Part shown: piece by piece, positions 1-35,849 of the stretch
How the letters are laid out: each line of letters opens with the position of its first letter
Position numbering within the stretch: position 1 is the stretch's first letter
Virus record (IMG/VR): IMGVR_UViG_3300011584_000017
Span: 1-35,849 of that record
Direction: 5' to 3' (one strand)
Length of the DNA: 35,849 bases
Origin: a virus
Lineage: Duplodnaviria > Heunggongvirae > Uroviricota > Caudoviricetes
Program-made: the position numbers and the translations under genes
The notes under the pieces: generated by a model
What the model saw: only the letters and a program-made list of their open reading frames with translations
Database searches by the model: none
Told to the model about the DNA's origin: nothing

Positions 1-483
1 ATGACGAAGAAAAAAGCACATAAACCTGGTTCAGCGACCATCGCGCTTAACAAGCGCGCCCGTCACGAATACTTTATCGAAGAAGAGTTCGAAGCGGGAC
101 TTGCCCTGCAAGGCTGGGAAGTTAAATCCCTGCGCGCAGGAAAAGCCAATATCAGCGACAGCTACGTCCTTCTGCGTGACGGAGAGGCATTTCTGTTTGG
201 CGCTAACATCACGCCAATGGCCGTGGCCTCCACGCATGTGGTGTGCGACCCTACCCGTACCCGCAAGTTACTTCTCAACCAGCGCGAACTGGACTCATTG
301 TACGGTCGCGTCAATCGAGAAGGCTATACCGTAGTGGCGCTCTCCCTGTACTGGAAAAATGCCTGGTGCAAAGTGAAAATCGGCGTCGCCAAAGGTAAGA
401 AACAGCACGATAAACGTTCAGATATCAAAGAGCGCGAATGGCAGGTAGATAAAGCGCGTATCATGAAAAACGCCCACCGTTAA
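1..483 (+). CDS. smpB: SsrA-binding protein SmpB
   Basis: 160-aa ORF; sequence recognised from memory as enterobacterial SmpB; immediately upstream of the tmRNA gene, the conserved smpB-ssrA arrangement. Confidence 0.96.
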
Positions 484-697
484 ACCTGCACTCCAATTAT
501 TGACCAGTTCCTCACCGCGCCTCCCTCTCCGGCGGCGCGAATGAACATCTTATTGGCTATCACATCCGACACAAATGTTGCCATCCCATTGCTTAATCGA
601 ATAAAAATCAGGCTACATGGGTGCTAAATCTTTAACGATAACGCCATTGAGGCTGGTCATGGCGCTCATAAATCTGGTATACTTACCTTTACACATT

Positions 698-1060
698 GGG
701 GCTGATTCTGGATTCGACGGGATTTGCGAAACCCAAGGTGCATGCCGAGGGGCGGTTGGCCTCGTAAAAAGCCGCAAAAAATAGTCGCAAACGACGAAAA
801 CTACGCTTTAGCAGCTTAATAACCTGCTTAGAGCCCTCTCTCCCTAGCCTCCGCTCTTAGGACGGGGATCAAGAGAGGTCAAACCCAAAAGAGATCGCGT
901 GGAAGCCCTGCCTGGGGTTGAAGCGTTAAAACTTAATCAGGCTAGTTTGTTAGTGGCGTGTCCGTCCGCAGCTGGCAAGCGAATGTAAAGACTGACTAAG
1001 CATGTAGTACCGAGGATGTAGGAATTTCGGACGCGGGTTCAACTCCCGCCAGCTCCACCA
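698..1060 (+). ncRNA. ssrA: tmRNA (transfer-messenger RNA, SsrA)
   Basis: Starts GGGGCTGATTCTGGATTCGACGG (tRNA-like 5' end) and ends ...GGTTCAACTCCCGCCAGCTCCACCA; internal tag reading frame at 787-819 encodes ANDENYALAA followed by TAA; about 363 nt. Confidence 0.96.
787..819 (+). other. tmRNA mRNA-like domain: proteolysis tag reading frame (ANDENYALAA-stop)
   Basis: GCA AAC GAC GAA AAC TAC GCT TTA GCA GCT TAA read directly inside the tmRNA. Confidence 0.9.
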
Positions 1061-8959: not shown

Positions 8960-9526
8960 TCAGGGGGATTCATTGATCTTATTTGCCGGAAATTTTCTAT
9001 AAATGGTAGAAACGCCTACATCAAAAATCAGTGCAATACGCTGTATTGATTCTCCGGCCTCGAGTAAACGCCCAATCTGTGCCCACTGTTCGGTGGTCAA
9101 CTTAGGACGGCGTCCACCTACTCTGCCTTTGGCACGAGCTGCAGCCAGCCCTGCCCTGGTACGTTCAACTATCAGTTCGCGTTCCATTTCAGCCAGGGCA
9201 CCCATGACATGAAAAAAGAAACGGCCCATTGGGGTACTGGTATCAATACTGTCAGTCAGGCTTCTGAAATTCACACCACGCTGGCGCAACTCTTCTATCA
9301 GCGTAACAAGATGCCGCATACTGCGCCCCAACCTGTCCAGCTTCCAGACAACCAGCGTGTCTCCTGCCGATAGTGTCCTGAGTAGTTTTTTCAGCCCCGG
9401 TCTGTCGGACTTAGTGCCACTGATTTTGTCCTCAAAAATCCGCTCACATCCCGCGCAGTTCAGTGCATTACGTTGCAAATCGGTGTTCTGGTCATTTGTT
9501 GACACGCGTACATAGCCAATAAGCAT
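8960..9526 (-). CDS. Site-specific DNA invertase, serine recombinase (Gin/Pin/Cin/Hin family)
   Basis: MLIGYVRVSTNDQNTDLQRNAL...VVWKLDRLGRSM...FFFHVMGALAEMERELI...: near-identical in pattern to Mu Gin; the ORF track start at 9532 adds MI before the likely Gin-like start. Confidence 0.92.
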   Translation of the reverse strand: MLIGYVRVSTNDQNTDLQRNALNCAGCERIFEDKISGTKSDRPGLKKLLRTLSAGDTLVVWKLDRLGRSMRHLVTLIEELRQRGVNFRSLTDSIDTSTPMGRFFFHVMGALAEMERELIVERTRAGLAAARAKGRVGGRRPKLTTEQWAQIGRLLEAGESIQRIALIFDVGVSTIYRKFPANKINESP

Positions 9527-9532
9527 GATCAT

Positions 9533-9608
9533 CCCCCTGAATAAAAACCGGAGATGATGCCAGTTAGCTGTTACCTCTGCATTTTCTTAAACGTTGGTTT
9601 GGGAGAAG
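9533..9608. repeat. Left inverted repeat of the invertible segment (contains the 15-bp core ttggtttgggagaag)
   Basis: Perfect 76-bp reverse-complement match to 11490-11565. Confidence 0.85.
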
Positions 9609-10093
9609 GCTCTGCATTACCTGTTGGTGTCCCTGTTCCGTGGCCTTCAGCCACTCCGCCAACAGGCTGGCTGAAATGCAATGGTGCAGCTTTTTCTGCT
9701 GAAGAATACCCGGAACTGGCAAAAGTTTACCCGACAAATAAATTGCCTGATTTACGTGGTGAGTTTATTCGTGGCTGGGATGACGGGCGGGGGATTGATA
9801 CAGGTCGCTCTATTTTAAGTATTCAGGGATATGCAACGGAGGATCATGCTCATGGATTACCGTCAAGATCCACGATTGTGACTGATGCAACTATTAATTT
9901 CTATTTTGATGAAAGCTGGGTAAATAGTGGCACTGACATTATCAAAAGAGGAAACACAAACGATGCTGGATTACCAGCACCGGATTATGGAACCTTTAAA
10001 ACATATAAACAATCAGTGGCTGGTTTAGGTGCCGCAGCCTCAGAAACGCGTCCGCGTAATATTGCATTTAACTATATCGTGAGGGCAGCCTGA
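9554..10093 (+). CDS. Alternative (silent in this orientation) tail-fibre C-terminal variable segment Sv'
   Basis: ORF shares GLGEGSALPVGVPVPWPSA with the end of the H constant region, then diverges; tail-fibre-like C-terminus; lacks the H constant part in this orientation. Confidence 0.7.
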   Translation: MMPVSCYLCIFLNVGLGEGSALPVGVPVPWPSATPPTGWLKCNGAAFSAEEYPELAKVYPTNKLPDLRGEFIRGWDDGRGIDTGRSILSIQGYATEDHAHGLPSRSTIVTDATINFYFDESWVNSGTDIIKRGNTNDAGLPAPDYGTFKTYKQSVAGLGAAASETRPRNIAFNYIVRAA

Positions 10094-10695
10094 TGCATAA
10101 AGCAATATTAAATAGTGAGCTCATTGCAACAAAGGCAGGGGATGTTACCGTTTATAACTATGATGGTGAAACACGGGAATATATTTCCACTTCAAATGAA
10201 TATCTTGCCGTTGGTGTCGGCATTCCGGCATGTTCCTGTTTAGATGCCCCTGGCACACATAAGGCTGGTTATGCAATCTGCCGTTCTGCAGATTTTAACT
10301 CATGGGAATATGTGCCAGACCATCGCGGTGAAACGGTCTATAGCACCGAAACAGGAGAATCAAAAGAAATCACCGCTCCGGGTGATTACCCTGAAAATAC
10401 AACCACTATCGCCCCATTAACGCCATATGATAAATGGGATGGTGAGAAATGGGTGACGGATACCGAGGCACAGCATAGCGCCGCAGTAGATGCAGCAGAA
10501 GCACAGCGCCAGTCGCTGATTGATACTGCAATGGCTTCCATCAGTCTGATTCAACTGAAATTGCAGGCCGGACGTAAACTGACGCAGGCAGAAACAACCC
10601 GGCTTAACGCTGTGCTGGATTACATTGACGCGGTGACGGCAACAGATACCAGCACCGCGCCGGATGTCATCTGGCCTGAACTGCCGGAGGCGTAG
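10093..10695 (+). CDS. Tail fibre assembly protein (U'-like, partner of Sv')
   Basis: 200-aa ORF with the typical Tfa C-terminus (...LDYIDAVTATDTSTAPDVIWPELPEA). Confidence 0.8.
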   Translation: MHKAILNSELIATKAGDVTVYNYDGETREYISTSNEYLAVGVGIPACSCLDAPGTHKAGYAICRSADFNSWEYVPDHRGETVYSTETGESKEITAPGDYPENTTTIAPLTPYDKWDGEKWVTDTEAQHSAAVDAAEAQRQSLIDTAMASISLIQLKLQAGRKLTQAETTRLNAVLDYIDAVTATDTSTAPDVIWPELPEA

Positions 10696-23978: not shown

Positions 23979-25721
23979 TTAGAATGCGGATTTGATTTTT
24001 TTCTCAAATGCCTCATATACAGGCTGGTTCATTTGGGCCGTTGCAGTAATAAGCTGTGAAAAATTTGATATACAATCTTTAACTTTTGTAGGACTTTTCA
24101 ACCCTCCTTCAACCAGTGCAGGCAGCAACTGATTACTTAAAGCCAGACACACATCTACAATTGGCTCCCAAATACTTTCAGCCTGAGAAGGAGAGACCGC
24201 ACTTCCAAACGAAACTCTAAATAAATTAGGAACGGGACGGCCCAAAAAGTTTTCCAAACATTCGGCAATAGCCGAGCACAATAAAGGTATTGAACCACGA
24301 TGCCTGAGATATCCCAATTGAGCGCCATCATTTTTTGAAAGAGTATCTTTCTTTGCCAAAGCTATTTTCTTGTTCTCAATACACCGCATGAGAGAATACG
24401 CACAAACAATATGTGAAGCTTTTGTACTGTCATTAAAAATCTTAGAATAATGAGAGTCATTAGTCCAAATTGCAGATCGCTGATTATAAGCTACCGTCGG
24501 CTCTCCATGGAAACTCATCAAAGCTTGACCAACAGTATAAGAAGGCAGTAGATTAGTTTTTCGACGAATGACACTTTCAGCACCTCCTCGTCTTCCTCCA
24601 TCATATTCAGCATCAGGAATAGAAGCAAATTCATTTTTAAGTCGTTTTTGAATTTTGTCTGTGCTTCTGAAATCAGATGCTTCAACTTTATTCTGACTGT
24701 TATTATACTGAATTATATTCTGAATTAGATCAGCATCCGCATCTTTGACTTTTATAAATCTAGCTTGGACTTTAACTGATTCTGGAGGTAATCGTGGCAG
24801 CGTTCCTAAAGCACCTGTTGTCTGTGCTCCATTAACTATTGACATCCCTCTGATTTTAAGATTCTTTGATGCTTCATTGAATTTATATTCATGAACCAAA
24901 ACAGTTACGCCATTATTGTATGCCCAAAATTCTGATGCTGAATTTTCCGCACTGTTACGGATACCATTATTGATATTTGAATCAGATGACCTTGATCCAA
25001 GGTAGTCTCTAACATTTGCTGAAAATATTTTTAATTTATGCTTTTTGTACGCTCTAGCTAAATCTCTTCCCTGAATGGTAGTACAGAATGCATTCCAATT
25101 ATCTCCTTTTATTTCGTAGCCACCATCACTGACTTTAATATTAAAAATATCATCAACCAGTATTGGTGATAGTGATTCACTATACCATTCCGTCAACTTT
25201 TCAGTGCCTACTTCCATTGCATGCACTTGTATTTTAGCATCTTCAAAATCATGTTTTAAAATAGTTGTTGCTGTCTGCTGAACCGTAATTAGCTCTTGAG
25301 CCACATTTGTTGAAGATGGTAAGTTATGAACATACCAAACGTACAGAGTTTTAATTTTCCCTTGTTTGATTGATGTCCGTATCTGTTGAGCAGAAGATTT
25401 TATTCTATCGGGTACATCATGCAAATCTCTTTGCAGAAGCCATGCTAAAGCAATATTAAGATCACTCGCTTTATTTGCTGGAGCTTCCTGTCTATCTTTG
25501 CTTGAGAAATAGCATTGAGCAAGTACAGCAAATTCTTCTTCTTCATTAATATACACAAGGTCACATTTCTTATCGTTATGTCCATCGGTAATGGACTCTG
25601 CTGCGACACTATCAATGTCATCAATTCTAAAATGTAATGCTAACGCAAACAAAGCCAGTCCATTATCACCATACGATTTCAAATCTTCTCTTGCAGAATA
25701 GGCTTGGTTCCAGGTACTCAT
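23979..25721 (-). CDS. AIPR-like protein (candidate abortive-infection / anti-phage defence protein); prophage cargo
   Basis: 580 aa from ATG 25721, which has a strong RBS (AAGGAG 5 nt upstream); visibly AT-rich relative to the phage core; no Walker A; motifs TDGHNDKKCDLVYIN and IVNGAQTTG that I associate from memory with the AIPR family; sits between Q and cos. Confidence 0.6.
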   Translation of the reverse strand: MSTWNQAYSAREDLKSYGDNGLALFALALHFRIDDIDSVAAESITDGHNDKKCDLVYINEEEEFAVLAQCYFSSKDRQEAPANKASDLNIALAWLLQRDLHDVPDRIKSSAQQIRTSIKQGKIKTLYVWYVHNLPSSTNVAQELITVQQTATTILKHDFEDAKIQVHAMEVGTEKLTEWYSESLSPILVDDIFNIKVSDGGYEIKGDNWNAFCTTIQGRDLARAYKKHKLKIFSANVRDYLGSRSSDSNINNGIRNSAENSASEFWAYNNGVTVLVHEYKFNEASKNLKIRGMSIVNGAQTTGALGTLPRLPPESVKVQARFIKVKDADADLIQNIIQYNNSQNKVEASDFRSTDKIQKRLKNEFASIPDAEYDGGRRGGAESVIRRKTNLLPSYTVGQALMSFHGEPTVAYNQRSAIWTNDSHYSKIFNDSTKASHIVCAYSLMRCIENKKIALAKKDTLSKNDGAQLGYLRHRGSIPLLCSAIAECLENFLGRPVPNLFRVSFGSAVSPSQAESIWEPIVDVCLALSNQLLPALVEGGLKSPTKVKDCISNFSQLITATAQMNQPVYEAFEKKIKSAF

Positions 25722-25804
25722 TATCACTCCTTAGTAATAAAGTTTTAGCGAAGGTTATCTCTAAGAAGGTACATTTTCAATTCCATTTATCCCTCCAGCG
25801 CGCG

Positions 25805-25996: not shown

Positions 25997-26674
25997 CTAG
26001 AACGTGACAGCCTTGTCAAAGCCAGAAATAATTGTATAAGAAATAGACGAGTTATCAGCCTTGTTCACTTTGAACTTGGCACCTTTGTAAGCGATAACGT
26101 CACTTCCCTTAGAATCTACAGAAAAATCTGTTGTAAATGCTGCACGAGCCATATCGTTTGCAAATTCACGATAGGTGAACTTCATTACACCGCCTGCATT
26201 TCCATTGTATTCGATAGTCTTAACCAATGAGTTACTAACTCGACACAGCCCATCAGGAACACGTTTGATAGAAATTTCTGATGCAGTATAAGAAGTACCA
26301 TTTGGCGGTGATATCTCATTTTTTGCAGCATCGTAACTAACATAATCAACATAGTTACCGATTTGCCCATAGAGATTTTTTAACGCAACAGCTTGAGGGT
26401 TATGATAATTGCGGTAAATTCCATTCCCCTCACTGCAATATGTACCAGCAGCGATAGAAGACAATGCACCATTAGCCGCACCAAGTTCTAGTACGTCCGT
26501 TTTAAATCCAGTAGCAGATGTGATAATGGGATCGCCCATGTAGGCGGTAGCACTTTGCCCAATAGCAGGCTTCACCACTTCAATAGCAGTGATATTTCGG
26601 TTAGAAGCATGTGGCACGCAACCAGTTAGGATTACAGCAAGAGATATTGGTAACGCTACATTATTAATTTTCAT
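25997..26674 (-). CDS. Putative lipoprotein (candidate superinfection-exclusion / surface protein); prophage cargo
   Basis: 225 aa from ATG 26674; signal peptide with lipobox MKINNVALPISLAVILTGC; Gly/Ser/Thr/Tyr/Asn-rich mature part ending in a C-terminal Phe; AT-rich; flanked by its own terminators. Confidence 0.7.
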   Translation of the reverse strand: MKINNVALPISLAVILTGCVPHASNRNITAIEVVKPAIGQSATAYMGDPIITSATGFKTDVLELGAANGALSSIAAGTYCSEGNGIYRNYHNPQAVALKNLYGQIGNYVDYVSYDAAKNEISPPNGTSYTASEISIKRVPDGLCRVSNSLVKTIEYNGNAGGVMKFTYREFANDMARAAFTTDFSVDSKGSDVIAYKGAKFKVNKADNSSISYTIISGFDKAVTF

Positions 26675-26695
26675 TTTTAGCCTATTATTCTTTTC

Positions 26696-26733
26696 TTGAC
26701 AAAAAACAAGGCGATATCTGATTGACATCGCCT
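26696..26733 (-). terminator. Terminator of the SOS-regulated tum/DinI-like operon
   Basis: Hairpin aggcgat...atcgcct followed by a U-run (UGUUUUUUG) on the minus strand. Confidence 0.45.
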
Positions 26734-26787
26734 CTCACTCATATGTAACCCTTTTTGATTAGTAAAAACAAGCGTCTATTGACAAAA

Positions 26788-27021
26788 TCAATGCAGCCAG
26801 CTGTCGTCTTCCCACACCTTCTGCATAATTTTCATCACTTGTTTTCTTTCTTCGTCCAGTTGCAGTCCGGTCAGTTCCACACCGTTAGAGCTACCTTTAC
26901 GGATACGGATTACCGTTTTGGGATACAGGGGGCGCAGATTGCGGTAAAGCTCGGATTCAAGGGCGTCCAGGGTAGACTGGCTAATCTTCTGCTCTTTATC
27001 GATCATTATTTCAATGCGCAT
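26788..27021 (-). CDS. DinI-family protein (Tum C-terminal-domain-like, SOS-induced)
   Basis: 77 aa from ATG 27021 (MRIEIMIDKEQKISQSTLDALESELYRNL...VWEDDSWLH), clear DinI-like sequence; RBS GAGGTG 6 nt upstream; the longer track ORF from 27093 is an artefactual extension. Confidence 0.8.
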   Translation of the reverse strand: MRIEIMIDKEQKISQSTLDALESELYRNLRPLYPKTVIRIRKGSSNGVELTGLQLDEERKQVMKIMQKVWEDDSWLH

Positions 27022-27031
27022 AAAAGTCACC

Positions 27032-27220
27032 TCAGCTGATGACATCCATTGAGCGGTTGTATTCGTGGCTTCTGATTTTTGCCATGAGTTCATCAGTCAA
27101 TTCAGAAACCCACTGCAGAGCCAGCTCCTTCTCTTCATCACTACACTCACTAGCCGCTACAAGCTTAAGAAAAAAATCAATGCGCTGGAGCTTCAAAGAC
27201 TCCAAAAAATAGTCCTGCAT
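27032..27220 (-). CDS. Small acidic protein, first gene of the LexA-controlled operon (candidate antirepressor/Tum N-terminal-like)
   Basis: 62-aa ORF with RBS GGAGG; its stop TGA lies inside the RBS of the DinI-like gene (translational coupling). Confidence 0.55.
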   Translation of the reverse strand: MQDYFLESLKLQRIDFFLKLVAASECSDEEKELALQWVSELTDELMAKIRSHEYNRSMDVIS

Positions 27221-27263
27221 CTTTCCTCCTATGACACCACACGCAATGCTGTATGTATAACCA

Positions 27264-27279
27264 CTGTTTATATTTACAG
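27264..27279 (-). promoter_or_regulatory. LexA box (SOS box) overlapping the promoter of the tum/DinI-like operon
   Basis: CTGT-ttatattt-ACAG, exact CTGT-N8-ACAG with AT-rich spacer, 44-59 bp upstream of the 62-aa ORF start. Confidence 0.7.
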
Positions 27280-27374
27280 TATATAATAATCTTACTGATG
27301 TAAAACGTTTTTTTTACGCTTATCAGCCTGATATGCCTAGTATTATTAAGAGCACGAATTGTTAACCAGCGTAA

Positions 27375-29789
27375 TTAATACAGGTTCCGCCACTTATCAT
27401 CTTCCTGCAAACGCTGGTTCCGATAGAAGATACGCAGGCCTGCTCCTGACGGAATACTGCCGCCGCGAAGGAGTAAATCGACCTCTTTCTCGCTGCCATC
27501 AAATCCTCTGGATTTCAGTTCATAGACGAGCTGCTGTCGTTGATGGTCTGTAATTCGCTGTTTGTAGTCTCTACGCCGTTTCGGTTTCACCAGACGTAAC
27601 CTTGCAGCCAGTTCCCGGCGCCCCTTTTTGTTCATACTGTGCAGGTAATCGTGCAACTCCTTGTCATCCATGCGGGTAAAGTCCGTTCTGGGGCCCCCAT
27701 CAGCTGATTTATCTTTCTCCTGTTGGTTCAAATTTTCAGCAAGGGGACAGTTATTGCCACGAGTCCAAGGGGCGCAAGCGCCCTGGTCGGCTGCCGCCTC
27801 CTGAACGTCAACGGCCTTACGAACCATTTTCCACTTCACTGCATGAGTGCAGATCTTGCCCTCTGCAATGGGTGACCAGATGCCATAAATACGAATACCG
27901 TGATCGCCATAGGCGGTCGGCTCTTCGTTGATTTCATAAGCGGTTCTGATGAGGTGATATTTACGGGGAACCAGTACGCCGCCCTGCTTCATGATGTAGG
28001 TGGCATAGCAACCAGCATCAGCTGCAGCCAGAATGGCATCAAGGCGCGGGTTATCCAGTACCGGCGCACCTGCTTTTTTGTCACCCTGTTGCCTTGCCGC
28101 CTGACCAGCCAGCAATCGCAGTTCACGATAAGCCTGACGCCCCGGAATGCCAAAGAAGCGGAATTGCTGAACACGATGCAGAGACGCCCAGGCATTAACG
28201 TATTCAGCGTTATCACGCAGGGATTTACCCGTTTCCTTGCTGATCTCGCCAGCCAGACCACGCCCGTCAATGTTCTTACTGATGTATTTCGCGATGTAGC
28301 TTGTCGGCGTTCCTTTGCGCGGGTTTATCAGCTCAGATTTAAAGCGTGGACCAGTGTTATTACCCAGTTCCTCGCGGTCTTCACGGATGGCAAATTTACG
28401 CAACAATGCAGTAATGGCGCGGCGGTCTTTTTTGCGCATGAAACACAACAGGTGCCAGTGAACTGTACCGTCATGATGCGGCTCAGCCACCCGCACGCCA
28501 TACCAGCGCAACCCGGCTTTGTGCATCGCCTTACGAAATGCAGCAAACATGCCGACCAGATAATCGCTGCTTTGTCTTACCGTCGCATTTGTCCAGGTTG
28601 GGTTTGGTCTGCCGTTATTGAGCGTGGAATGGAAACGTGACGGACAGGTAATGGTGTAGAAAACGGCGCAGTCACCGCGCATTTCCGCGATAAGCTCCAG
28701 ACCTTTAACACAGGCCATCATCTCATTGCGGCGGTGCGCCGGGTTGCTGCTGCTGGCGTTTACCACGTCTTCCATATCCAGCGTGTCGCCCTCTTCGTTC
28801 ACCAGTTCATGAGAACGGAAAAACTCCAGTGACTTGCGGCGCTGCTCACGTTTATGCATCACGGCTTCATAGCTGACATAGGGAGATGCTTTTTTGCTGA
28901 CCAGGCAGACAGCACGCAACTGCTCTTCCCGCCATTCGCAACGCATTTTCCATAATTTCCGGTACCACCAGTCGGCGCACAACATACGCGCCAGCGAACC
29001 CGGAATGAGTTCATAGGGCACGGGTTTACGGCGGTTTCTTTTCCGACGGAGTTGCTCAAACGCAGGCGGGATGACATCCAGACGCAGGGTTTCCGCTGCC
29101 ACCTTTTCCCATGTCTTGCGGATTTCTTCTGGCTTAACGTCATCGGTGGCATACAAATCACCACAAGCTGCATCAAGGCACATGCTCATATGCGCAGCGA
29201 CAAGGGTAGACAGGCGTTTCACCTGATCCTGACTCATTTCAGGCAGGATCAGCAGGCCGTCCAGCCCTACATGGCTTGCCATAAAACGAAAAGATGCAGA
29301 TAGCTGGCTGTCGCGTACATGCTCCAGTCGTTCCAGACATGGCTTAATCGTCTCACGTAAATAGCGGGAATAAGCCTTTGGCCTGCCCAGGCTGCTGAAG
29401 TATTCAATACGTTGCATCAGCGGCTTGCTGATATGAGAAGGCTGGGCGTTGACGTCCGCCAGAATGACCATATCCGGATTAAAACGCTGCTGCTCATGCG
29501 CCAGCTTTGCCCGGCTAATGAGCTTATCCTGCTCCATTTCGTGCTGGACAGGATCACGTGATTCATTAAAAAAATAACGCTCCCAGACCTGATCACTCAG
29601 TGCCTCGCGGCGCAACTGTTCCTGCTCGTTATCGGCAGCGTACAGAGTGATCAGGTTTGAAAGCGCAGAAACCGGCGCAACTTCCGCCGGGTCCAGATAA
29701 GGGTTAATGGCCTTTTTCGGGCTGTTCCATGAGAACGCTGCGGCAACCTCGTTAAAGCCGTAGCAGTTGTTCATATCGGCATGGCTCAT
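27375..29789 (-). CDS. A: Replication initiation protein A (rolling-circle initiator)
   Basis: 804-aa ORF in the gpA position at the end of the early operon; ATGA overlap with the upstream methylase gene. Confidence 0.88.
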
Positions 29790-33134: not shown

Positions 33135-33767
33135 ATGTTAAACATCAGAATGGGTTCCGATACGGGAGGTAAGGCAGCTATTGAGAGGCTGCTTAAGGCT
33201 TATGGATTCACAACTAAGCAGGCATTAAGCGAGCACCTGAATGTCTCAAAAAGTACTATGGCAAACAGAGTGTTACGTGACAGCTTTCCTGCTGACTGGA
33301 TAATTCAGTGTGCACTAGAAACCGGTGTTTCGTTACTTTGGTTAGCCACAGGACAGGGAAGCATGAAAGAAGGATACGAGTCTGAGAAAAGATCTCATAA
33401 CGAGAACAAACAAGCAATTAAACCGTTATCCAAACTCATAACTCCATCTATTCCTAAAGGAACCTTGGAAAATGGGCAACTCAGTATTGATGAAGAGATT
33501 TTCCTAGACCACAGCATATTACCTGCAGATTATGAAGAATCGATGTTCTTAGAAACCCCTACTGATTGTTATCTCATCGATAAATCAGTTAAACAAGTCA
33601 GCAATGGATTCTGGCTTATCAATATTGATGGAATGATTATTATTGCAAAAATCATGCGGATTCCCGGCAATAAAATTGTAGTAAATCAAGATGAAGCGTC
33701 TTTCGAGTGCTCTGCTGATGATGTGGAAGTTATTGGGCGTGCAGTCAAAGTAATAAAGAGTATCTAA
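33135..33767 (+). CDS. cI: Immunity repressor CI (phage 186 CI type, no LexA-like autocleavage domain seen)
   Basis: 210-aa ORF with N-terminal HTH (TTKQALSEHLNVSKSTMANRV); no G-x-S-M peptidase motif; co-directional with int and ends 2 nt before it. Confidence 0.82.
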   Translation: MLNIRMGSDTGGKAAIERLLKAYGFTTKQALSEHLNVSKSTMANRVLRDSFPADWIIQCALETGVSLLWLATGQGSMKEGYESEKRSHNENKQAIKPLSKLITPSIPKGTLENGQLSIDEEIFLDHSILPADYEESMFLETPTDCYLIDKSVKQVSNGFWLINIDGMIIIAKIMRIPGNKIVVNQDEASFECSADDVEVIGRAVKVIKSI

Positions 33768-34790: not shown

Positions 34791-35849
34791 ATGAAAATTA
34801 AACTAACATCAATCATTGCCTATACCATTATATCTATTATTATTGCACTAGGTTTAGTGTATACCAATAGACCAAGAATCTTTGTTTTATTTAGCATATT
34901 TCATATCCTTGGTGTGGTTGTTATATTCTATTATTTCAACTGGTTAAAACTTAATGAGAAAAACCTATTAAAGCAGCCATTATTTATAGCTTCAATTATC
35001 ATACCGTTAGAAATGTTTATTTTGTATGGCCTTTGGGCATGGAAAGGTCACAGTTTAGATTTTACGTCAGAAGGCTTTAATCAATTCTTAGATATCTCTA
35101 AATTACCATTGTTAATTTTAGCTTCTTCTGTTCCTCTTGCATCAATAGTAAATAATATACACAGAACAACTCAGACAGAGAATCAGATTGAAAAAACACA
35201 AAAACAAATCAATCTTGTAATTGAAAAGAATAAAACTGATTCTTATTACTCACATCTAAAAAGTTACGCGGATATTTTTAAAACACTACCGGCTTTTAAA
35301 ATATCAAGATTAAACAAAAATGATGGAAGCACGGAATACATTGAATTATCTGTCGTTCATCCTTACACTCTCTACAAAAATATATTCAAATCATCTTCAA
35401 TCGATAATGGATATAGCACCACGGTCGAAGATGGCTTCATAAAAAAAACAAAACACCTTTATAACAAAATAAACAAAAGCCTTACATCAAAAAATACTAC
35501 TCATGATATCCAATTATCTAATCTGCAACTAATAGAATCACACATAATTGAACTATGCCGATTACTTGGGATTGACTATAAATACCAAGAACATCTATTT
35601 CTAATAATTTTTGAGAATCCCAAACATAATATAGAATCAATAACTATCTCATATAGTGATGAAAAACAACTTAAGCAAATGCTTTGGGGGCTAAGAAACA
35701 TTCTCATTGAACTATATATTTTAATTGACGAAGACCCCAATATTTTTCTAGCAAGCAAAAATACTGGTAACGTCATCCCTGATTATGCCCTATATTTTGA
35801 AAATCTGTTTACACACATTCTCCCTATCTCAAATAAAATGCGTATGTGA
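34791..35849 (+). CDS. Hypothetical membrane protein (about 4 N-terminal TM helices plus Lys/Asn/Ile-rich soluble domain); candidate prophage-expressed exclusion/defence factor
   Basis: 352-aa ORF starting 4 nt after the int stop, ending with TGA at the last window base; extremely AT-rich compared with the phage core; weak RBS. Confidence 0.6.
   Translation: MKIKLTSIIAYTIISIIIALGLVYTNRPRIFVLFSIFHILGVVVIFYYFNWLKLNEKNLLKQPLFIASIIIPLEMFILYGLWAWKGHSLDFTSEGFNQFLDISKLPLLILASSVPLASIVNNIHRTTQTENQIEKTQKQINLVIEKNKTDSYYSHLKSYADIFKTLPAFKISRLNKNDGSTEYIELSVVHPYTLYKNIFKSSSIDNGYSTTVEDGFIKKTKHLYNKINKSLTSKNTTHDIQLSNLQLIESHIIELCRLLGIDYKYQEHLFLIIFENPKHNIESITISYSDEKQLKQMLWGLRNILIELYILIDEDPNIFLASKNTGNVIPDYALYFENLFTHILPISNKMRM

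Follow-up and report, generated by a model that had tools for sequence, protein, structure and literature searches.

A two-gene tumA–tumB operon as the probable SOS induction module of a Fels-2-like prophage next to ssrA in Escherichia coli

The window, as we call the whole stretch of 35,849 nucleotides of viral DNA analysed here, contains a pair of small genes that would constitute the SOS induction module of the prophage harbouring them. In the reading we favour, with a probability of about 0.82, the region is a tumA–tumB SOS induction operon of a Fels-2-like prophage of the P2/186 family residing beside ssrA in E. coli, with TumA, a 62-aa protein, as the antirepressor. In the lysogen, the host LexA protein would occupy an SOS box lying over the -10 element of a p95-like promoter and keep the operon off; upon DNA damage, activated RecA would trigger the self-cleavage of LexA and the operon would be transcribed. 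TumA would then bind the 186-type repressor CI and prevent it from binding its operators, a reversible sequestration that would leave CI uncleaved, after which the early lytic promoter would fire. TumB, made from the same transcript, may bind RecA filaments and tune the SOS signal rather than act as an antirepressor. The binding of LexA, the interaction of TumA with CI and the role of TumB are all extrapolated from published work on 186, PSP3 and Fels-2.

The window represents a Fels-2-like (Peduoviridae) prophage integrated next to ssrA in an E. coli host: smpB and ssrA, located at its left end, are 99.8% identical to E. coli chromosomes, and the DNA beyond them is a prophage of the P2/186 family. 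Across the region of the module, sequence identity amounts to 96.8% with Salmonella phage Fels-2 and to 97.7% with Klebsiella phage 4LV2017. The operon is located directly downstream of replication gene A, whose product shares 89% identity with the gpA-like protein of Fels-2 and 35% with the A protein of 186. The same neighbourhood recurs in a comparative set of loci encoding TumA relatives (47 fetched, one genome per species, 45 of them with flanks sufficient for analysis), where a gpA homologue precedes the TumA-like gene in 43 of 45 cases. Matches to at least part of the 1.5-kb region were found by megablast in 1143 of 5426 complete E. coli genomes, and in RefSeq tumA is labelled as a 'hypothetical protein' and tumB as a 'DinI-like family protein'. 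The sequence-only reading of this DNA had placed a terminator after the gene pair, and the predicted structure there indeed combines an 11-bp stem with a U run and folds with a z-score of -2.2. The features discussed are listed in table 1.

Table 1. Position of the tumA–tumB operon and associated features in the window.
Feature	Position	Strand	Basis or remark
smpB	1-483		left end of window
tmRNA gene ssrA	698-1060		left end of window
Intrinsic terminator ending the two-gene operon	26708..26734	-	11-bp stem and U run
tumB (ORF2), 77 aa, DinI-family	26788..27021	-	Pfam DinI match
tumA–tumB junction	27028..27034	-	tumA TGA 27032-27034; tumB Shine-Dalgarno GAGGTG 27028-27033
tumA (ORF1), 62 aa, acidic	27032..27220	-	homology to N-terminal half of 186 Tum
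LexA (SOS) box TACTGTAAATATAAACAGTG	27262..27281	-	first six bases are the putative -10 hexamer
CTGT-N8-ACAG core of SOS box	27264-27279	-	read from sequence
Putative -35 hexamer TTTACA of p95-like SOS promoter	27299..27304	-	analogy with 186 p95
P2 gpA-type replication initiator	27375..29789	-	conserved neighbour upstream of module
cI, 186-type immunity repressor	33135..33767	+	Pfam Phage_CI_repr and Phage_CI_C

The sequence-only reading had raised the possibility that the 62-aa ORF corresponds to the N-terminal part of the 186 protein Tum, and profile comparison bears this out. A profile of Fels-2-type TumA sequences aligned with a profile of the N-termini of 186-type Tum proteins with an hhalign probability of 96.7% (E-value 3.7e-10, 48 columns), the homology extending over Tum residues 1-48. 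The N-terminal half of Tum outside the DinI-like domain, by which a 186-type Tum operon can be recognized, has its homologue in TumA. At the level of individual sequences the similarity appears remote (BLAST aligned TumA and 186 Tum with 26% identity over 35 residues), and a BLAST comparison of TumA from the window with TumA of PSP3 gave no match, the two being linked through profiles only. Independent support for the link between TumA and the Tum N-terminus is provided by shared PHROG families, as the window TumA, residues 1-61 of 186 Tum and the PSP3 TumA each match at least one of phrog_698, phrog_8554 and phrog_1993, all three labelled 'unknown function'. In addition, small ORFs from phages of Yersinia, Erwinia, Cronobacter and E. 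coli bridge the two groups, matching both TumA and 186 Tum as queries and exhibiting the motif L-[EQ]-R-I-x-L-h-x-[RK]-h-x-A-x-x-x-C-x-x-x-[DE]-[RK]-x-h-A-L-x-W-h-[AS]-E-L. STM2728 of Fels-2 is 95% identical to TumA. An AlphaFold2 model of the protein is a helical hairpin (helices 2-23 and 28-61, pLDDT 90), for which a fold search against the PDB returned generic helical hairpins, none at an E-value of 0.001 or lower; PDB sequences searched with a TumA profile yielded no match, and no Pfam, NCBIfam or PADLOC model matched the protein.

The second protein, TumB, was assigned to the DinI family and to the C-terminal part of Tum already from the bare sequence, and both assignments hold. It matches the Pfam DinI family (PF06183) over its full length (E-value 6.6e-23, 81 bits compared with a cut-off of 24) and the solved structure of DinI (PDB 1ghh) with an E-value of 2.7e-6, and it is 41% identical to residues 70-146 of 186 Tum, 78% identical to TumB of PSP3 and 100% identical to STM2726.1 of Fels-2. 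Its score against the NCBIfam equivalog model for the chromosomal DinI, 42.7 bits, falls below the cut-off of 111 bits, so that TumB is to be viewed as a paralogue and not as DinI itself. Membership in the DinI family is also what suggests that TumB may bind RecA filaments.

Upstream of tumA lies the 20-mer TACTGTAAATATAAACAGTG, which differs from the LexA-box consensus TACTGTATATATATACAGTA at three positions, all of them outside the CTGT and ACAG cores. The earlier description of a consensus SOS box overlapping the promoter stands as far as the core is concerned; the term consensus applies to the core only, and the promoter is proposed by analogy. The bare 16-nt pattern does not prove anything by itself, since 0.6 matches to it are expected per window (at least one match occurred in 45 of 100 shuffled sequences); the 20-mer, when three mismatches at most were allowed, was matched once in the window and in none of 100 shuffles. 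Stronger evidence than the window alone can offer comes from the comparison of the 45 loci, each from a different species. In 34 of them, the 150 nt that precede the TumA-like gene contain a perfect CTGT-N8-ACAG, and about nine further loci have a box with a single mismatch in the core. The density of boxes in these 150-nt segments amounts to 5.0 per kb, compared with 0.04 per kb over the remainder of these loci, i.e. a roughly 127-fold enrichment over the flanking DNA. Five divergent phage loci, too, have exactly one box each, just upstream of the small ORF. In phages of the Fels-2 type the perfect box lies about 14 nt further upstream than in 186 and PSP3, and only the right half-site is left where the 186 box aligns.

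The case for a promoter overlapping the box is built on its layout, TTTACA-17 nt-TACTGT, which matches that of the annotated p95 promoter of 186, TTCACA-18 nt-TACTGT; a scan for consensus promoters did not call it, as the hexamers fall under the threshold of the scan. By this analogy, a p95-like promoter would overlap the SOS box, to which LexA would bind in this E. coli prophage. At the sequence level, the operon then has a LexA box over its putative promoter, as a 186-type Tum SOS operon does.

The repressor that TumA would have to counteract is of the 186 type. CI matches Pfam models for the N-terminal helix-turn-helix domain (Phage_CI_repr, E-value 1.3e-30) and for the C-terminal oligomerization domain (Phage_CI_C, E-value 7.2e-31) that together define this type, is 31% identical to 186 CI over the full length (E-value 1e-35), and finds the crystal structure of 186 CI (2fjr) with an E-value of 1e-26 and that of its C-terminal domain (2fkd) with an E-value of 1e-12. 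In agreement with the earlier remark that CI shows no LexA-like peptidase motif, the Peptidase_S24 model of Pfam gave no match to it at E-values up to 0.1. A self-cleaving repressor of the LexA or lambda-CI kind was rejected on these grounds, the C-terminal domain being of the unrelated 186 CI type. Hence the sequence-only reading was right, at the sequence level, in recognizing here the logic of 186, in which induction proceeds through an antirepressor under LexA control and the repressor is not cleaved, and the order of gene A, LexA box and tum is likewise that of 186.

Which of the two proteins counteracts CI is a separate matter. It might be TumB, or the two might be needed together as a complex, TumA then being an accessory protein or a chaperone. 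Such a joint function is conceivable given that both parts are borne by one polypeptide in 186, and tumB stays closely linked to tumA, with purifying selection of the same strength acting on it. We nevertheless consider TumB improbable as the antirepressor, as 28 of the 45 genomic loci, as well as five phage genera, keep a LexA box and a TumA-like gene without any DinI gene. Since 34 TumA-like genes are preceded by a perfect box and only 17 are followed by a DinI gene, TumA appears to be the conserved core of the module and is probably the antirepressor of CI. TumB, for its part, is conserved between PSP3 and the window (78% identity) despite very different TumA and CI proteins, which fits a host target, namely RecA, better than a phage-specific one. 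In the Gifsy prophages, DinI homologues accompany unrelated antirepressors, and induction there proved unaffected when the dinI homologue was deleted (Lemire et al. 2011, PMC3121763). The same authors ascribe the antirepressor activity in PSP3 to the upstream one of its two genes, citing a personal communication (PMC3121763).

A different view would be that the operon is an SOS-induced 'moron' serving the host, in which a DinI-like modulator of RecA is combined with an unrelated small protein, and that the prophage is either non-inducible or induced in some other way. No phage of the related Salmonella prophage BTP5, which has a tum homologue, could be detected whether mitomycin C was added or not, and TumA occurs next to a wide variety of CI alleles, as would suit such a view. 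We deem it quite improbable, more so than an antirepressor function of TumB, given that TumA is homologous to precisely that part of 186 Tum that lies outside the DinI-like domain, and that the position and regulation of the operon match those of the experimentally dissected 186 operon. Moreover, the title of the paper by Bunny, Liu and Roth (2002) reportedly names the Fels-2 prophage as the reason why lexA null mutations are lethal in Salmonella; this paper is also cited by Lemire et al. for the split of tum in Fels-2 and PSP3.

Comparison of phages carrying a Fels-2-type TumA revealed an uneven pattern of divergence. Near-identical TumA proteins (85-98%) adjoin CI proteins that are 39-60% identical to CI of the window, and in the same phages the neighbouring cII and A stay 82-100% identical. 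The identity of CI in phages with this type of TumA ranges from 64 to 75% in the N-terminal helix-turn-helix domain and from 26 to 60% in the C-terminal oligomerization domain. Where two phages have TumA proteins of 85% identity or more, their CI proteins share a median of 70% identity in the N-terminal and 33% in the C-terminal domain. The identity of TumA correlates with that of the N-terminal domain of CI with a Spearman coefficient of 0.79, compared with 0.21 for the C-terminal domain, as calculated from 136 non-independent pairs formed by 17 phages, with ancestry partly controlled through the use of two domains of one gene.

If an antirepressor has to match its repressor closely, near-identity of TumA beside diverse CI proteins is unexpected, and in this respect it counts against the model with TumA as the antirepressor. 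A tentative way out, which we rate as rather unlikely, would be that TumA recognizes the N-terminal DNA-binding domain of CI and not the C-terminal one, so that a single TumA type could serve, also in trans, many CI alleles whose remaining sequence differs strongly. The difference between the two domains is only a hint of TumA action on the DNA-binding domain, and much of the pattern could stem from common ancestry and from immunity cassettes that recombine. Were TumA indeed to act on the N-terminal domain of many CI alleles, SOS induction of a Fels-2-like prophage could derepress co-resident, nominally different prophages of the P2/186 family. Action on co-resident prophages is known for the Gifsy antirepressors.

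The operon does not encode a single 146-aa polypeptide joining an antirepressor and a DinI-like part, the hallmark of a 186-type Tum. As tumA and tumB occupy different reading frames and are each provided with a separate Shine-Dalgarno sequence (AGGAGG four nt ahead of the tumA ATG, GAGGTG six nt ahead of that of tumB), the module is a split tumA/tumB variant rather than a strict orthologue of Tum. It shares with PSP3 and Fels-2 the arrangement of a homologue of the Tum N-terminus followed by a DinI homologue behind one LexA box. The sequence-only reading had correctly located the stop of the first ORF within the ribosome-binding site of the DinI-like gene: the GAGGTG of tumB overlaps the TGA of tumA, and 13 nt separate the T of this stop codon from the A of the tumB start codon. 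Translational coupling of the two genes is plausible in view of this overlap. A hairpin at the junction that would enforce the coupling was considered and dropped, as shuffled sequence folds just as well (z-score 0.16).

Both tumA and tumB are real genes under purifying selection. Between diverged copies, dN/dS is 0.01-0.13 for TumA and 0.03-0.11 for TumB, with dS of about 1, i.e. near saturation. The two-ORF split also occurs in Fels-2, RE2010, SEN8, many Klebsiella phages and an E. coli plasmid-form phage, and a DinI gene stands downstream of the TumA-like gene in the genomes of 17 of the 45 species. The suspicion that the two ORFs are one tum gene broken by a frameshift, a nonsense mutation or a sequencing error, voiced as an alternative in the sequence-only reading, may draw on the single 146-aa Tum of 186 and on the PSP3 ORFs, which lie in the same frame with a stop and one codon between them, but it is exceedingly improbable and is refuted by the comparative sequence data, namely by the identical frame offset and the own GAGGTG in Fels-2, RE2010, SEN8 and many Klebsiella phages, by the two-ORF split in 17 species' genomes, by dN/dS of no more than 0.13 for both halves with synonymous sites near saturation, and by the tail of TumA (residues 49-62), which is unlike the linker of 186 Tum.

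LexA-controlled induction by an antirepressor is textbook knowledge for 186. The split form is not new either, contrary to what the sequence-only reading implied: tumA and tumB are annotated in PSP3, the Fels-2 record refers to TumB, and Lemire et al. (2011, PMC3121763) state that tum is split. With the arrangement already described for Fels-2 and PSP3, the tumA–tumB operon of the window is real but ordinary; it carries little weight as a discovery, and the remaining uncertainty is experimental rather than conceptual. It does have some practical use. There is no Pfam or NCBIfam model for TumA-type antirepressors, and four PHROG families containing them are labelled 'unknown function'. A LexA box and a TumA-like gene after gene A would make a simple predictor of SOS-inducible P2-like prophages, and such a prediction bears on the induction of prophages by DNA-damaging antibiotics.

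Among the closest known systems is Fels-2, which has the same LexA box, the same position after gene A, the same terminator and the same downstream 243-aa ORF as the window; it, too, integrates at ssrA. In the Fels-2 record, STM2726.1 is described as a DinI-family protein similar to TumB of PSP3, and the 62-aa STM2728 as hypothetical. The two prophages differ in their hosts (Salmonella for Fels-2, E. coli for the window), in the cargo gene adjoining the module, which is AIPR/AbiU-like in the window, and in CI, which is 60% identical between them (74% in the N-terminal and 60% in the C-terminal domain). The downstream 243-aa ORF belongs to phrog_1353, whose function label is unknown, and gave no match in PADLOC; it was rejected as a homologue of orf97 of 186 (BLASTP E-value 4.5), which it resembles in position and, by coincidence, in length.

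PSP3, too, has a gene pair that follows gene A and is preceded by a LexA box, with the upstream gene corresponding to the Tum N-terminus as in the window. They are annotated as tumA ('similar to 5' end 186 tum; UV induction of prophage') and tumB ('similar to dinI and 3' end of 186 tum'); a literature search on the names TumA and TumB returned unrelated words alone. Unlike in the window, the PSP3 ORFs are in frame, TumA falls into PHROG family 1993 (698 for the window protein), and CI has a duplicated N-terminal domain.

In 186 itself, Tum reportedly binds CI and keeps it from its operators (Shearwin et al. 1998). Tum has been described as an anti-CI factor that is expressed from the LexA-regulated promoter p95 and acts by sequestering CI (PMC7708051). 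The first hexamer of the LexA site of p95 doubles as the -10 element (TACTGT), and the same overlap is seen in the window, whereas the distance from the box to the start codon is about 40 nt in the window and 18 nt in 186. The 186 operon continues after gene A with p95, the 146-aa tum, a partial terminator and orf97. Its tum contains in-frame internal starts, one of which gives a truncated, DinI-only product described as a 'modulator' of induction, whereas the window has two separate genes. The CI protein of 186, non-cleavable and inactivated by sequestration, is of the same type as that of the window.

A more distant parallel is offered by the dinI-gfoA/gftA operons of Gifsy-1, -2 and -3, which follow the same logic as the operon of the window: behind a LexA box, a small antirepressor is encoded together with a DinI homologue, and its target is a repressor that is not cleaved (PMC3121763). 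They differ in having dinI first, i.e. in the reverse order, and in belonging to lambdoid phages with a repressor of another family. Lemire et al. (2011, PMC3121763) remarked that Tum resembles an antirepressor fused to DinI and that in Fels-2 and PSP3 tum is split in two, and the tumA–tumB operon of the window has this latter form.

The repressor region and the genes around it were compared among Fels-2-like phages. When the window (CI at 33135-33767) was aligned with the compared phage records L001 and L009-L017, CI identity amounted to 39-60% and Apl identity ranged from 19 to 100%, whereas the flanking cII, A and tumA were 82-100% identical; CI and Apl are thus much less conserved than their neighbours. 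The divergence within CI is uneven, with the N-terminal helix-turn-helix (HTH) domain being 64-75% identical in these same phages and the C-terminal oligomerisation domain only 26-60%. The type of TumA, the homologue of the N-terminal half of 186 Tum, correlates with the N-terminal domain of CI (Spearman 0.79) and hardly with the C-terminal domain (0.21 only), both values being calculated from 136 non-independent pairs of 17 phages. Alignment further revealed that CI of three phages, namely 4LV2017, ST11-OXA48phi15.3 and PSP3, consists of two tandem N-terminal HTH domains followed by a single C-terminal domain, the length of these proteins being 286-313 aa.

TumA itself (27032-27220, minus strand) is not covered by any family in Pfam or NCBIfam, and four PHROGs that include TumA or Tum-N proteins (698, 8554, 1993 and 37919) are labelled "unknown function". 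Gene calls in databases (entries P0001-P0120) often give it 84-106 aa, because an in-frame GTG or TTG upstream was picked as the start; the conserved product has 62 aa. The position of the operon's LexA box also differs between phages. An alignment of window positions 27221-27261 (minus strand) with the boxes of 186 (L002, 7545-7564) and PSP3 (L003, 7595-7614) places the perfect box of the Fels-2 type approximately 14 nt upstream of the site corresponding to the 186 and PSP3 box, at which just the right half-site ACAG is left. In the more distant TumA classes, the box lies 14-21 nt from the start codon.

Coordinates of the features discussed (window unless a phage record is named).
Feature	Record	Position	Strand	Remark
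smpB (host)	window	1-483		left end of window
ssrA, tmRNA gene (host)	window	698-1060		tag ANDENYALAA
Serine recombinase/invertase	window	8960-9532	-	Resolvase and HTH_7 domains
AIPR-domain protein, 582 aa	window	23979-25727	-	Pfam E 1.8e-34; PADLOC AbiU E 1.9e-34
243-aa ORF	window	25997-26728	-	immediately past tumB terminator; phrog_1353 (unknown function)
ORF of at least 352 aa	window	34791-35849	+	starts directly past integrase gene; open at window end
CI, PSP3	L003	1719-2579		two N-terminal HTH copies
CI, Klebsiella phage 4LV2017	L009	1504-2445		two N-terminal HTH copies
CI, Klebsiella phage ST11-OXA48phi15.3	L015	6192-7127		two N-terminal HTH copies

The left flank (window 1-1060) matches E. 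coli chromosomes at 99.8% identity, and the prophage starts immediately past ssrA. At the opposite end, the ORF of at least 352 aa has no match in Pfam or PADLOC; RE2010 and ST258-KPC3phi16.1 carry an uncharacterised gene at the equivalent position. Between the portal gene and the tum operon lies the AIPR-domain gene, which is likely abortive-infection cargo and occupies the region that varies among P2-like phages. The 243-aa ORF is conserved in Fels-2 (STM2726). Translation probably begins at an internal position, MKINNVALPISLAVILTGC, a stretch resembling a lipoprotein signal that includes a lipobox. The ORF equals 186 orf97 in length and occupies the equivalent slot; homology to orf97 was ruled out (E 4.5). 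Finally, the invertase gene adjoins two genes on the opposite strand, one for a protein with a tail-collar domain and one for tail-fibre assembly. The whole region (8960-10695) resembles a Gin/Cin/Hin-type switch, in which inversion of tail-fibre DNA alters the host range.
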